Positions 46,197 through 50,379 of a DNA stretch of 54,526 nt are shown piece by piece; position 1 is the stretch's first letter; every line of letters starts with the position of its first letter. Source of the stretch: Promethearchaeota archaeon (lineage in GTDB: Archaea > Asgardarchaeota > Hermodarchaeia > Hermodarchaeales > Hermodarchaeaceae); contig JBHLPH010000014.1 of assembly GCA_048939625.1 (NCBI GenBank), positions 1 through 54,526 on the forward strand, read 5' to 3'. Below the pieces are notes generated by a model. It was not told where the DNA came from. It searched no databases and worked only from the letters and a program-made list of their open reading frames with translations. The position numbers and the translations under genes were made by a program.

Positions 46197-46244
46197 TTAT
46201 ACAACACTCGTCGGGCAATTGTTGGAAAAACCAGATGGAGGCAT
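46197..46244 (-). CDS. putative 15-aa peptide MPPSGFSNNCPTSVV
   Basis: Directly downstream of the 583-aa wHTH gene; GAGGGT ~11 nt upstream; shares PPS with the two peptides at 48.2-48.4 kb. It overlaps an alternative 45-aa frame (46142-46279). Confidence 0.25.
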   Translation of the reverse strand: MPPSGFSNNCPTSVV

Positions 46245-46301
46245 TTAAGAAATGTACCCTCAACGACCAATTTTCCCATTTTAGACTAGTTTCGGAGCGA
46301 A

Positions 46302-48053
46302 TTAGCTCGAATCTAATTCGGGTAGAAAAGTTCGCTCCCATTTCCATTCTCTTTTTTTGAAATCATAATTTTGATGACTTATTGGTGACTCAAAACCACT
46401 GGCAGTTTGCCAAGTAGGTTTCACTTCAATATTAACATTAATTTCATTCTTTACGAAAGTTTCACGAAGAATTGAAAGGGTTTCTACAGCAGAATGATTT
46501 GGAATAAATAAGACGATCAAGCCATTGCCATTTTCAAAAATTAATGCTCTCATGTTAGGTAAAACACTCAACGCTTTTGCTAATAGAATGGTTATTGATT
46601 TTGTTTCTTTAACATAGAGTTGAATAGCAGTGTCCAATCCAATATGTAAGAGCACTAACCCTTGTAAGTGACTAACGTTCATTTTTTCTAATTGTCTAAT
46701 TCGACGACGATAAATCATATGAGCAGTCTCAGAGATGCCAGCTTGACGAATTTCTTCAGAAACTGGAGATGTAATGCGATCAGTTAGTTGGTGAATATCA
46801 GCCGCGCGAAGAAAGTAGGTGAAGTCTTCCGGTCGTAGGCTAATGGGATAATCCTGATTTGTTTCTAACAATTCGTATGACATTGATGATATTGAAAGAG
46901 CAGAAGTATCAATTTCAGTTTGATGGTTAATTGCGGATCTTATTTGGTAGTATTGTAAGGTGAAGTCTTGAGGCCATCCTGAATCAGGGACATAGATTTC
47001 AAAATTCCAAGAGCGTATTATTTCGTTAGTTCGAAGAGGAACAATCGGTAATATCTCCTGTGAATTCGAAAGGGCGAGTAGCCAGTCTTTGAATTCTTTC
47101 TCGTGCTTAGCTGGGACTATAACGCGGCAATGCAAGTTCGTTTTTTGAAATGTATTGATAAACCAAGTAAATTGGATTTCACTGAAGAGTGAGCTAATCC
47201 TTTGAAGAGTTTTAGTATCAGGAGTTTGTATAATGAGTTCGAATGGCGTAAGACCGATTAGTGGCAGATTAATGAAATGATTTAACCTCAGCAAGTGGCG
47301 TTTTGCTAGGTTGCTAAGGTGTTGGCTGAGTCCTGAAATGCTCATGTTGAGTTGGTCGGCAAGGCGGCTTTGGTGAAGGTGGGTGGTGAGTTGGCTAAGG
47401 GCAGAAAGGATGTGGTGCTCGGGTGGGGTGAGGGGAATATGAGTTTCGAGCATCCAGCGTTCTAGGGCAGCGGTGTAGGTGGGGGTAGCAAGAGAGATTC
47501 CGGTGGTTGGGGGACGGAGAGTGTTAAGCCAGGTAATGACGCGGTGAAGGAACGTTCCGGTGACGACTTGGTCGAAGAGAGGAAAGCCGAAAGGACCATC
47601 GTAGATGTAGTGCCGGTAATGTTGGGGGGGTGAGACCTGCTTCCAGAGCGCTATGAGCATTTCTCGATTGGCGTCGGTATAATCGCCATATTGGAGACCA
47701 GCGTAAAGACCCAAGTCAGCAGCTTCGGAGATGTGGCGTAGATGGGGGAGAAGGAAATTAAGAAGCGCTTCCCTCCACAACACCCAGTCCAAGATAGGCG
47801 TGGCTTTGTTTTGGAGAGCCTGCGCTAAAGTGACAGCCCAACTACCCCGGGAGCGGTCAGCCCGTTGGATTTCAAGTGCCCCGAAACGTGGTCGATCATA
47901 ATGGAGCGGAATATCACCCCATGTGAGCATGAGAATCCGATCTTTATGCCTAGGCAAAGGCTCAATCTCAAGTTCCTCTCGTAACCGCTCCTGTTTTTGG
48001 TGAAACCGTTGTGTGAGTGATTGTGAATGAAGTGCCACTGCAGTGCCATCCAT
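46302..48053 (-). CDS. large winged-helix protein (degenerate zincin-like N-domain, wHTH, Lrp/AsnC-like repeats), paralog 1
   Basis: HTH QSRLADQLNMSISGLSQHLSNL followed by the Lrp-like linker INLPLIGL; second degenerate repeat YRRRIRQLEK..LLHIGL; motifs shared with paralog 2. Confidence 0.75.
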   Translation of the reverse strand: MDGTAVALHSQSLTQRFHQKQERLREELEIEPLPRHKDRILMLTWGDIPLHYDRPRFGALEIQRADRSRGSWAVTLAQALQNKATPILDWVLWREALLNFLLPHLRHISEAADLGLYAGLQYGDYTDANREMLIALWKQVSPPQHYRHYIYDGPFGFPLFDQVVTGTFLHRVITWLNTLRPPTTGISLATPTYTAALERWMLETHIPLTPPEHHILSALSQLTTHLHQSRLADQLNMSISGLSQHLSNLAKRHLLRLNHFINLPLIGLTPFELIIQTPDTKTLQRISSLFSEIQFTWFINTFQKTNLHCRVIVPAKHEKEFKDWLLALSNSQEILPIVPLRTNEIIRSWNFEIYVPDSGWPQDFTLQYYQIRSAINHQTEIDTSALSISSMSYELLETNQDYPISLRPEDFTYFLRAADIHQLTDRITSPVSEEIRQAGISETAHMIYRRRIRQLEKMNVSHLQGLVLLHIGLDTAIQLYVKETKSITILLAKALSVLPNMRALIFENGNGLIVLFIPNHSAVETLSILRETFVKNEINVNIEVKPTWQTASGFESPISHQNYDFKKREWKWERTFLPELDSS

Positions 48054-48153
48054 TAGATAGCTATACAGGGGAAGGAGTGTAATTCTATCTTTTGATTTGA
48101 AGATCCTTATTGATTAGGTTATGATTAGCCTTTCATTTTCAATTAAAAAATAG

Positions 48154-48179
48154 AAAAAAGGGAACCCAAAATGGGTTCC
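48154..48179 (-). terminator. hairpin plus U-tract directly after the 14-aa ORF
   Basis: Minus strand reads GGAACCCA-TTT-TGGGTTCC-CTTTTTT. Confidence 0.55.
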
Positions 48180-48223
48180 TAAAGATTCACATCTGGAACA
48201 GGACATGATGGGGGGAATTCCAT
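48179..48223 (-). CDS. putative 14-aa peptide MEFPPSCPVPDVNL
   Basis: ATG..TAG with AAGGA upstream; codon-level similarity to the 10-aa ORF, including synonymous third-position differences. Confidence 0.45.
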   Translation of the reverse strand: MEFPPSCPVPDVNL

Positions 48224-48326
48224 CGAAAAGGTTTCCTTTTTCTTGTTCAGTTAATTTTCCAGGGATTTAGTGAATAAGGAATCTTATTGTGTTAGATGGC
48301 TCCGAGATGAGCTAGTGGTCATAAAC

Positions 48327-48359
48327 TTAGAATGGGTCGGGACGAGATGGGGGCCACAT
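48327..48359 (-). CDS. putative 10-aa peptide MWPPSRPDPF
   Basis: AGGAGG SD at 48376-48371, 11 nt before the ATG; TATA-like TTTAAAA at ~48418-48412. Confidence 0.5.
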   Translation of the reverse strand: MWPPSRPDPF

Positions 48360-48518
48360 TGGATAGGATGCCTCCTGTTTTTTTTGGGTACCCTTTTTGT
48401 CAGTTTTACTGTTTTAAAGACCAAAATTTATCTGCAAAAAATCGGAAAAAAAGAAAACAGCAGGCCTTATTCTTTTTATTTTCCAACAGGTAGTGCGTTA
48501 TGAAGGAACTGGATATCT

Positions 48519-50252
48519 TTAGAGACGCGGTGAAGGTAATGTATCCTTAGTCCAGATCCATCTATTTGTTTCAAATTGAAAATTTGCTGAATCGACGACC
48601 GGTGGGACAGTCCATCCATAAGCTTTCCATGCAGGCTTCATTGATAAGACCGCAGGAATTTCGATTGATGTAAAGATTCCTTTCAGAGCTGTTGATATTG
48701 AAACAGCAATAGCTGAAGGTACAAGGAGGGTAATAACACCAGTTCCGTTATCTAGTAAAATGCATGAAACATGTGGAAACAATTGGCAAGCGGAAATAAT
48801 TCGTTTTGTTTCTTCTGTTGAAGACACAAGATGAATGTAAATTACTGAATTTAACCCAATATTTAGTAACCCGATTCCTAGCGGCGGACTAATTAATTGA
48901 TTCTTTTCTAAAAACTTCACCCGCCGTCGATAAGCCATATGTTCTGATTCTTTGAAACCAGCTTCGCGCAACTCATGAGATTCAATGAATTTCATATGCC
49001 TTGTTATGAGAAATGCCTCTGTTGCCCGTTGCATATACACAAAATCTTGCTGCTTGATTTTGAAGGTTTTTTTAGAATGAGGCGGTGCTAATTTAAAAGA
49101 ATTAATCGGTGGTAGGTGAGTTGTTAAATCTTCAGAAATTAATCGAGAAAAACTATCGAGAAGGGCTTCGGTTTCTATTGACCAACCTCCTATTTGAGAG
49201 TCGTATAAGTCTAGGTTTCGAGCATGCATTCTTTCCGAAATGAACCCGAACTCAGGTTGGCTAAGATCAAAACTAGAGGAAACTTGTCTTAACCATTGGT
49301 GAAATCGGGTCATGCGTTCTACCGGAATGAGAAATGAGGCCAGTAGCTGATCATTAAATTCCTGCATAGCAAGTGAGTACCGGATTTTTGATATCATCCG
49401 CATTAATGAATCAATAATCTTCATTTTTGATGTGGTGAATTTGACTGTAATTGGTTGAAGCCCTAATTTAGGATAGTTTGTGAAGATAATAAATCGCAGT
49501 AGGTGTTTTTCTGCAAGGCGTTTGAAAACCTGACTGATTGTTGGTTGACGGAGCTTGAGTTTTGCTGCTAACTCAATTTGTGAACATGATAAGCAGTCGT
49601 TCAGACCCCGAAGAACTTTGAGTTCAATTGGACGAAGAATTCTATGATAATTAAACATCCATCGCTCTAGACTCTCAGTGTAACTTTCTGTGCTCAAAGG
49701 CATCCTTAATTCATTGAATGGTTTTAACCAATCTTTTGCCATTTTAAGAAAATTACCATCAACAAGATTGTCAAAATACTCGAATCCTGCAGTGGGATAA
49801 TAACGATAAAAAGTGAAATATTTGGGAGGAGACACTGCTTGCCAGATTTGTAGGAATTGGTTTCGACGTTTTCTCGTCCTAAGAGCATAACGATAGTAGT
49901 AATAGAGTCCAAGATCAGCAGCTTCGGTAACTTGACGAATATTATGTGGGAGATGAAGGAGATAGGCTTCACGCCAAAGAATGGGGTCAAGGTATTTTGA
50001 GTATTGAGTAAGGATAGTTTGAGAAAGCTCTAGGTTGTACTGACTCATATCATCTAAATATTCTGTTGCTCCGAATCTTGGCCCTGTAAATTTAAGGGGA
50101 ACATCTACGAAATTAATTGTGGAATAACGGTCGAGGACTGGGGACCCAAGATTCGTCTCGGTGGTTATCAGGATTTTTCTAAACGCAGCGATGGCTTCCG
50201 CTGTGTATTCATTAAGCGAATTTATCTGGTTTGCTGGTTGTTTTGGGGTCAT
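48519..50252 (-). CDS. large winged-helix protein, paralog 2
   Basis: PRFGA, LWREA, EAADLGLY, VSPP and LERWM; HTH SQIELAAKLKLRQPTISQVFKRL; NYPKLGL; HMAYRRR. Start codon uncertain (50252 or 50285). Confidence 0.75.
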   Translation of the reverse strand: MTPKQPANQINSLNEYTAEAIAAFRKILITTETNLGSPVLDRYSTINFVDVPLKFTGPRFGATEYLDDMSQYNLELSQTILTQYSKYLDPILWREAYLLHLPHNIRQVTEAADLGLYYYYRYALRTRKRRNQFLQIWQAVSPPKYFTFYRYYPTAGFEYFDNLVDGNFLKMAKDWLKPFNELRMPLSTESYTESLERWMFNYHRILRPIELKVLRGLNDCLSCSQIELAAKLKLRQPTISQVFKRLAEKHLLRFIIFTNYPKLGLQPITVKFTTSKMKIIDSLMRMISKIRYSLAMQEFNDQLLASFLIPVERMTRFHQWLRQVSSSFDLSQPEFGFISERMHARNLDLYDSQIGGWSIETEALLDSFSRLISEDLTTHLPPINSFKLAPPHSKKTFKIKQQDFVYMQRATEAFLITRHMKFIESHELREAGFKESEHMAYRRRVKFLEKNQLISPPLGIGLLNIGLNSVIYIHLVSSTEETKRIISACQLFPHVSCILLDNGTGVITLLVPSAIAVSISTALKGIFTSIEIPAVLSMKPAWKAYGWTVPPVVDSANFQFETNRWIWTKDTLPSPRL

Positions 50253-50379
50253 AGATGAAAGTTTCCTGTTGTATTTCTCCAACAATCATTTCTATCAAAG
50301 GAGTTGTCTTTATAATATTCGACAATTTGTTCATAGCTTGTATGTGGAGTTTTTCTATAATTCCGTTTCTGGATTAGTG

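Follow-up and report, generated by a model that had tools for sequence, protein, structure and literature searches.

In the RRNPP and Rgg-SHP systems of Bacillota and their phages (PlcR/PapR, Rgg/SHP, ComR/ComS, AimR/AimP), a short peptide gene adjoins the gene for a cytoplasmic helix-turn-helix (HTH) regulator, and the cassette is inherited as a unit, diversifying in pairs. A first-pass annotation of a 54,526-nucleotide (nt) stretch of contig JBHLPH010000014.1 from a Promethearchaeota archaeon (hereafter the window) proposed a comparable system, with two tandem regulators each followed by tiny open reading frames (ORFs) for peptides with a PPS motif. We find at this locus a module of four parts that is conserved within one Hermodarchaeota-type Asgard family. 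It comprises two paralogous proteins, pA and pB, and two micro-genes for short proline-rich peptides:

48519-50285, minus strand: pA, the upstream paralog; a TTG-started ORF of 588 aa, with the likely true start at ATG 50252 giving 577 aa
46302-48053, minus strand: pB, the downstream paralog; 583 aa, with pA-like architecture
48412-48440, minus strand: micro-gene 1 promoter; TTTTTGCA box (48440-48433, conserved), followed after 13 nt by the TATA-like CTTTAAAA (48419-48412)
48327-48375, minus strand: micro-gene 1 (type 1); GGAGG (48375-48371), an 11-nt spacer and the ORF MWPPSRPDPF (48359-48327)
48145-48179, minus strand: terminator-like hairpin GGAACCCA-ttt-TGGGTTCC plus T-tract, ending the micro-gene 1 unit ~107 nt before the pB start
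46185-46284, plus strand: micro-gene 2 (type 2); TTTTTCA box (46185-46191), TATA element TTTTTATA (46194-46201), GGAGG (46237-46241) and the ORF MYPQRPIFPF (46252-46284)

As in the RRNPP systems, the peptide gene lies beside the gene of its putative receptor and is inherited with it, and this part of the proposed parallel stood. Its other parts did not. In Pfam and fold searches the receptor is zincin-like with a double Lrp part and contains no TPR, the host is an archaeon, and peptide binding is putative. The peptides are whole ORFs of 10-14 codons with no signal or pro-sequence, and are not secreted pro-peptides because such ORFs are too short for either region. RRNPP signalling is therefore an analogy in working principle and not the family to which this module belongs. 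In the literature searched, we found no paper describing the module, in line with the earlier statement that no archaeal counterpart has been described.

Both regulator genes are real and co-oriented, as first described. The proteins share 30% identity across 548 aa (E 1e-71), including every motif originally quoted as common to them, and the 577-aa form of pA from ATG 50252 is identical to database protein P0001. Across 400 genomes searched in the phylum, the pA-pB tandem was recovered in all 14 of the other genomes from the window's genus and in two of the four sister-genus genomes, together with homologs of ~530 aa in a few other Asgard families. All homologs found for pA and pB come from Asgard archaea and are labelled Hermod-, Thor- or Promethearchaeota.

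Between pA and pB, the type-1 micro-ORF is found at all 15 loci of the genus (six related genomes, then nine more loci). The unit in this spacer consists of the TTTTTGCA box, 10-12 nt, a TATA-like (G)GTCTTTAAA, ~36 nt, GGAGG, 8-11 nt, the ORF, and a hairpin with T-tract whose stem shows compensatory changes across genomes (e.g. GGAACCC/GGGTTCC versus GGAAACC/GGTTTCC). The ORF has 10-14 codons and follows the pattern M-(x)-[W/Y]-P-P-x-[R/H]-P-[D/E/Y/N]-P-x(1-5), with the conserved core at the N-terminus and tails of varying length. In 17 aligned cores, third positions vary in all 8 codons and first positions in none of the 6 codons for conserved residues; the Arg of the core is encoded by AGG, CGT, CGC or CGA. 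Such third-position variation with fixed residues indicates selection on the translated peptide, not on DNA or RNA. Motifs resembling a Shine-Dalgarno (SD) sequence are in use in this genome, preceding 23% of starts versus 4% in a control window. MWPPSRPDPF, noted at the outset for its AGGAGG SD sequence (cAGGAGGc, 11 nt upstream), is a genuine micro-gene with TATA box, GGAGG, ORF, hairpin and T-tract.

Tandem duplication of the micro-gene 1 unit was observed in some genomes, and the window carries two further copies between micro-gene 1 and pB:

48262-48303, minus strand: decayed second tandem copy (GGAGCCATC...), with no ORF left and an approximate end coordinate
48179-48223, minus strand: micro-gene 1b, MEFPPSCPVPDVNL, a diverged copy

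The decayed copy aligns with intact second copies at loci L005, L006 and L008. Micro-gene 1b, which had also been named as a peptide ORF at the outset, is present as described and has CCCCCATC.GTCC.G..CCA in common with micro-gene 1; its only counterpart is MNYLTSHPVPDVSL in the closest relative, L043. Elsewhere, the L046 spacer contains a decaying second copy, (I)QWPPIRPYPDP, with ATA in place of ATG, the second copy in the L044 spacer is frameshifted, and L045 retains the second subtype alone. The decaying copies and the lone subtype indicate birth-and-death turnover of these micro-genes.

Micro-gene 2 is convergent with pB, its ORF ending 17 nt short of the pB stop codon. A type-2 micro-ORF was present at all 14 loci with sequence available, encoding MYP[P/Q/A][R/Q]..P.P or MSYPRxRPxxPG; most genomes have a T-tract or hairpin between it and the pB stop. 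The two micro-gene promoters are alike (TTTTTGCA, 10-12 nt, TATA, ~36 nt, GGAGG), and the combination of box and TATA is rare, with just three instances in the 2.3-Mb genome. The sister genus differs in layout, its one micro-ORF (MYPPDRPEPLPG or MFPPSRPDPAPG) being situated upstream of pA.

The first-pass annotation had read this region on the wrong strand and reported a third peptide there, MPPSGFSNNCPTSVV:

46196-46243, minus strand: MPPSGFSNNCPTSVV ORF; unconserved, running antisense over the promoter and ribosome-binding site of micro-gene 2, not counted as a gene

This ORF exists but relatives read MPP-stop or unrelated tails, and it was rejected as a peptide gene; the true conserved gene is MYPQRPIFPF on the opposite strand. 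The conserved part of MPPSGFSNNCPTSVV is ATGCCTCC, the reverse complement of GGAGGCAT, which is the ribosome-binding site of micro-gene 2. The shared PPS motif was for this reason partly an artefact, whilst a real motif, aromatic-P-P/x-x-R/x-P-x-P, remains. Nor is each paralog followed by its own peptides, as had been proposed: the two conserved micro-genes lie on either side of pB and on opposite strands.

It is very improbable that these conserved blocks are untranslated, acting as DNA operators or as a small RNA with a chance open frame. At the DNA level, too, conservation of the GGAGGCAT block and the C-rich core is high. Substitutions nevertheless follow a three-base periodicity, start and stop codons are retained in every genome, and types 1 and 2 have a peptide motif in common despite different DNA. 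An Rfam search of 45500-51000 returned tRNAs alone, with no match to the micro-gene blocks. We infer that the peptides are made in vivo. Annotation pipelines do not see genes as short as 10-14 codons; comparative evidence by itself allows three to be called here with confidence.

Micro-gene 1 lies upstream of pB with the hairpin and T-tract between them, and the micro-ORFs could in principle be translational sensors: a slow, Pro-rich leader ORF would report the status of Pro-tRNA or aIF5A and govern read-through of the hairpin into pB (attenuation). Pro takes four of the ten codons, including a PP pair close to the start, and in the window the 5' untranslated region of micro-gene 1 (AAAAAGGGTACCCAAAA, 48382-48398) pairs with the 3' arm of the terminator (48155-48171) at -19.8 kcal/mol versus -7.7 after shuffling. 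This inverted repeat is real in the window but not conserved; the antiterminator pairing is at shuffle level in 11 of 12 other genomes and weak in L040, and the locus was rejected as an attenuator, no conserved alternative antiterminator/terminator pairing having been found. The distance from ATG to hairpin ranges from 43 to 179 nt, and extra ORF copies can lie in between. Downstream of micro-gene 2, which faces the 3' end of pB, there is nothing to control. Residues other than Pro (aromatic, Arg, acidic) are likewise kept through synonymous changes, and pB has its own conserved promoter-like box. Given the unconserved pairing, the variable spacing, the lack of a target for micro-gene 2 and purifying selection on non-Pro residues, we regard attenuation as improbable.

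The box upstream of pB resembles GGTAGAATTA and lies ~26 nt before the ATG; the pB mRNA is probably leaderless or has a very short leader starting from it. At the pB start itself, ATG/TTG-GAT-GGC is followed by an immediate stop codon in five of the 15 genomes:

L005:8199-8216, L008:2332-2349, L009:2985-3002, L010:8061-8078 and L042 (pB start region): stop sites at the start of pB

One codon after the stop, GTG, ATG or TTG opens pB, so a 3-codon 'MDG' mini-ORF with re-initiation is probable in these five genomes. In the window, unlike those five, the ATG-GAT-GGC-type codons are in frame with pB. The use of all three stop codons (TAG, TGA and TAA) after MDG led us to reject recoding at this position.

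Linkage between the peptides and the regulator pair is exclusive. Across 19 genomes of the family, a degenerate DNA pattern for the type-1 core gave 14 matches, all at pA/pB loci, and a reversed control pattern gave none. Two of these genomes are without pA/pB, and the core pattern had no match in either. The aromatic-P-P-x-R-P-x-P core was found at pA/pB loci alone. Likewise, the 2.3-Mb genome contains 141 GGAGGCAY sites, just two of which, those at this locus, precede such peptides. The expectation that homologous loci would carry conserved short ORFs was thus borne out, by a pattern far above chance and specific to pA/pB loci. With the patterns used, no proline-rich micro-ORF was found within 700 nt of a third paralog, pC (15 loci), or within ~1.5 kb of distant Asgard homologs. 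This distant paralog, a 608-codon open frame (G000 contig 9: 57925-58782; locus L049:2503-4326), is kept in all family genomes at 53-79% identity.

The module also moves as a block. It is flipped between constant neighbours in different species (window 43387-52799 versus L005, L010, L041, L042 and L045), with valyl-tRNA synthetase (ValRS) and tRNAs on one side and tRNA-Met and MoxR-AAA/VWA on the other. No transporter, exporter, target peptidase, immunity or further tailoring gene is present in the conserved neighbourhood.

We next consider the architecture of the two proteins, here given for pA:

aa 1-205, about 49638-50252, minus strand: zincin-like N-domain of pA, from the structure model
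aa ~208-250 of pA, minus strand: winged HTH (wHTH), then RAM1, a degenerate second HTH (HMAYRRR) and RAM2

The 205-residue N-domain modelled alone has a predicted local distance difference test (pLDDT) score of 92.4. An exhaustive VIA search with this model returned zincin or zincin-like domains for nearly all of its top 50 matches. The best was M1 aminopeptidase F3 (1z1w; Z 10.0, root mean square deviation 3.6 A, 167 aligned residues), followed by the M1 catalytic domains of LTA4H (Z 9.6) and PSA (Z 9.5), the best group spanning Z 10.0-9.3; further matches included TAF2, thermolysin, ACE (angiotensin-converting enzyme) and M48. Foldseek gave no significant match, with minigluzincins and LTA4H topping the list. 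ESM Atlas gave weak matches led by the YgjP, SprT and M48 families, and its feature search no usable match. These fold searches bear out the initial suggestion of a zincin-like N-terminal domain. Its fold is that of a gluzincin and follows the M1 aminopeptidases (F3, LTA4H, PSA, APN) and their inactive relative TAF2 over its whole length (Z 8-10), but there is no sequence similarity, the flanking M1 domains are absent and R-E-x-x-L stands in for HExxH.

The lack of metal ligands suggested for the pocket was also borne out. R94-E95-A96-x-L98 is invariant in 45 sequences and lies on the helix after a three-stranded sheet; E110-A-A-D113, with D113 invariant, lies on the next long helix. In the model, RExxL thus takes the position of HExxH and the metal-binding histidines are absent, which would make canonical zinc binding impossible. 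Distant Asgard homologs likewise have [R/K]-E and no histidines, indicating that this 'dead zincin' state is ancestral to the family. In pB orthologs, the strand leading up to the 'active-site' helix also carries a G-A-x-E element, which is invariant. In M1 enzymes, the GAMEN motif holds the N-terminus of the substrate. The G-A-x-E element may be reminiscent of this motif and would fit a peptide-holding cleft.

IrrE and ImmA (COG2856), to which the domain had been likened, contain a zincin-like domain, an HTH and a small-molecule-binding domain in that order, and control transcription. Both are active HExxH proteases that cleave a repressor. The domain order of pA and pB is the same, but their metal ligands are missing, the sensor part is RAM and not GAF-like, and IrrE is not among the top fold matches.

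Behind the N-domain, Pfam and NCBIfam detected a sub-threshold wHTH at aa ~210-260 and nothing else. The window proteins score 14-21 bits against Pfam HTH_24, MarR and AsnC-type thresholds, below the cut-offs, whilst the wHTH of basal relatives exceeds them (e.g. MarR_2 49 bits, HTH_24 46 bits). The AlphaFold model of pA, built with 45 homologs, has a pLDDT of 88.6 and a predicted template modelling (TM) score (pTM) of 0.85. Its secondary structure shows two HTH-RAM modules per chain, with RAM as beta-alpha-beta-beta-alpha-beta. The best whole-protein match of pA in Foldseek was the siroheme decarboxylase NirDL (4ch7; E 8.6e-7, TM 0.50 normalised by target length, 7% identity), followed by dozens of Lrp/AsnC regulators, many at probability 1.0; a profile search matched PH0061 and halophilic Lrp at aa 201-334. 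By its predicted structure, each protein is a single-chain Lrp 'dimer', two fused Lrp/AsnC modules with a degenerate second HTH, in agreement with the Lrp-like repeats seen initially. The HTH and RAM folds are those of the Lrp/AsnC proteins (feast/famine regulatory proteins; PH0061 2dbb, ST1022, FL11), but two modules per chain, the degenerate second HTH, the 200-aa zincin-like N-terminal addition and scores below Pfam cut-offs set pA and pB apart. Structurally the module sits within the Lrp/AsnC world, with a new architecture and an N-domain that is zincin in fold without being an active zincin.

NirDL is likewise a tandem fusion of two Lrp-like modules, a fold that is tandem or heterodimeric in the AhbA/B-NirDL group, and the top structural match being an enzyme raises the alternative that pA and pB modify or ligate the micro-peptides, on an AhbA/B-NirDL-like scaffold or in a metal-independent zincin-like cleft. 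The locus would then resemble the arrangement of ribosomally synthesised and post-translationally modified peptides (RiPP) or microcin C. Glu95, at the catalytic position, is invariant. Directly translated micro-ORFs are known from mccA (7 codons, then a terminator) and tarsal-less/pri (11-aa tandem ORFs), and the present micro-ORFs, sometimes tandem on one transcript and then a terminator, before larger genes, resemble the mccA layout; the sequences, hosts and partner proteins of these systems are unrelated to this module. We consider an enzymatic role a poor prospect. The first wHTH looks functional, being a good DNA-binding motif that exceeds Pfam cut-offs in relatives, and identity to NirDL, which is without an N-terminal zincin domain, is just 7%. 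The peptides have no leader region, and the conserved neighbourhood has no transporter, immunity or further tailoring genes. Haem-pathway genes are absent among the genes directly flanking the module (ValRS, tRNAs, MoxR-VWA), no genome-wide search for them having been made.

The two proteins are predicted to bind each other. A complex model of pA 195-577 with pB 200-583 gave an interaction prediction score from aligned errors (ipSAE) of 0.78 (three runs, 0.75-0.80), versus 0.00 for the best of three controls. The ipSAE mark was reached by 58/80 solved complexes and 2/110 mismatched pairs, although these calibration counts are rough as our own alignments were used. Between runs, at least 88% of contacts are shared, and the partner pLDDT reaches 80 or more. 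The predicted interface joins second RAM to second RAM, resembling the RAM-to-RAM contacts of Lrp/AsnC proteins, and we conclude that pA and pB probably associate via these domains.

From these results we tentatively favour a reading, held at somewhat short of an even chance, in which pA and pB are joint DNA-binding regulators whose pseudo-peptidase cleft binds the micro-peptides and whose operator is likely the TTTTTGCA box. Each paralog would combine an N-domain turned pseudo-peptidase by the loss of its zinc-binding histidines with a wHTH and two HTH-RAM modules. The two to three micro-genes around pB would be transcribed independently, each with its own TATA box, GGAGG and terminator, to yield unprocessed cytoplasmic peptides of 10-14 residues with the N-terminal core M-(x)-[W/Y/F]-P-P-x-R-P-x-P. 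Resistant to hydrolysis, such a proline-rich peptide would occupy the disabled substrate cleft of the N-domain; a conserved N-terminal core with variable tails would fit a cleft that anchors one end of the peptide. Occupancy may then alter DNA binding by the pA/pB assembly, and if its target is the TTTTTGCA box of both micro-gene promoters, the feedback loop would be closed. It is possible rather than probable that these unprocessed peptides are intracellular (or exported) ligands in an M1-like pseudo-aminopeptidase cleft, switching a heteromeric double-Lrp factor. Such a system would be the first archaeal peptide-receptor circuit, assembled from parts used by no known system.

Several points weigh against a peptide-binding regulator. 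The zincin relationship is one of fold alone: Pfam, NCBIfam and PDB profile searches found no sequence-level link for the N-domain and nothing beyond the wHTH. The equation of R94-E95-xx-L98 with HExxH, and of E110/D113 with the Glu-helix, was drawn from helix order and not from residue-level superposition. No such micro-ORF was seen within ~0.7-1.5 kb of distant paralogs that carry the [R/K]-E N-domain, hence this domain is not always paired with a peptide gene. In Lrp proteins, amino acids are usually sensed by RAM, which could therefore be the sensor here in place of the N-domain. Since the peptides have no export signal, a role between cells would require an unknown exporter. Finally, the pA-pB contact score may stem from solved Lrp RAM-RAM interfaces, and the complex model is blind to the distinction between hetero- and homo-oligomers.

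Some of the same observations suit the main rival explanation, in which the micro-genes are outputs. Here the RAM domains would sense an amino acid or small ligand and switch both promoters, and the peptides would act elsewhere, for instance as exported signals or as inhibitors of true zincin peptidases. Amino-acid binding by the RAM/Lrp fold is well known, the rare upstream box is common to both micro-gene promoters, and distant family members have no micro-ORF nearby. Proline-rich bradykinin-potentiating peptides (BPP) inhibit ACE, and ACE bound to one of them, BPPb, is among the Foldseek matches of the N-domain (row 48). We nonetheless judge this explanation unlikely, as it leaves the fusion of a peptide-cleft fold to regulators and the invariant pseudo-active-site residues unexplained, and the conserved neighbourhood offers neither an exporter nor a target peptidase.

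The locus may thus hold an undescribed, putative circuit of peptides and regulators. Were the peptides ligands of the neighbouring regulators, archaea would gain peptide-based regulation, so far known only from Bacillota and their phages, and a peptidase fold would have been recycled as the peptide sensor of a transcription factor. The circuit would be compact and tractable for Asgard archaea, with two proteins, two peptides and two promoters. Even with the peptides as mere outputs, the module provides a new regulator architecture, a pseudo-zincin with a single-chain Lrp dimer, and a new micro-protein family.

Two RNA features were observed beside the module. At 45958-46058 (plus strand), next to tRNA-Ala, lies a second tRNA that is convergent with micro-gene 2 and pB. 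It has an apparent intron and a readable 3' end (GGTTCAAATCCCGTCCGAACCACCA); Rfam matched 45995-46055 alone (31.6 bits), ARAGORN made no call, and the same tRNA follows the module at L005 and L007. On the other side, between pA and tRNA-Met (50592-50669), a non-coding block of ~190 nt at ~50340-50545 is highly conserved across the genus. It shows paired-looking substitutions (AGTGGCTGTGC...GCAGTCGCG) without an Rfam match or tRNA call, and could represent a structured RNA that has escaped recognition, or else a tRNA with several introns; two ORFs listed there (122 aa and 68 aa) are probably spurious.

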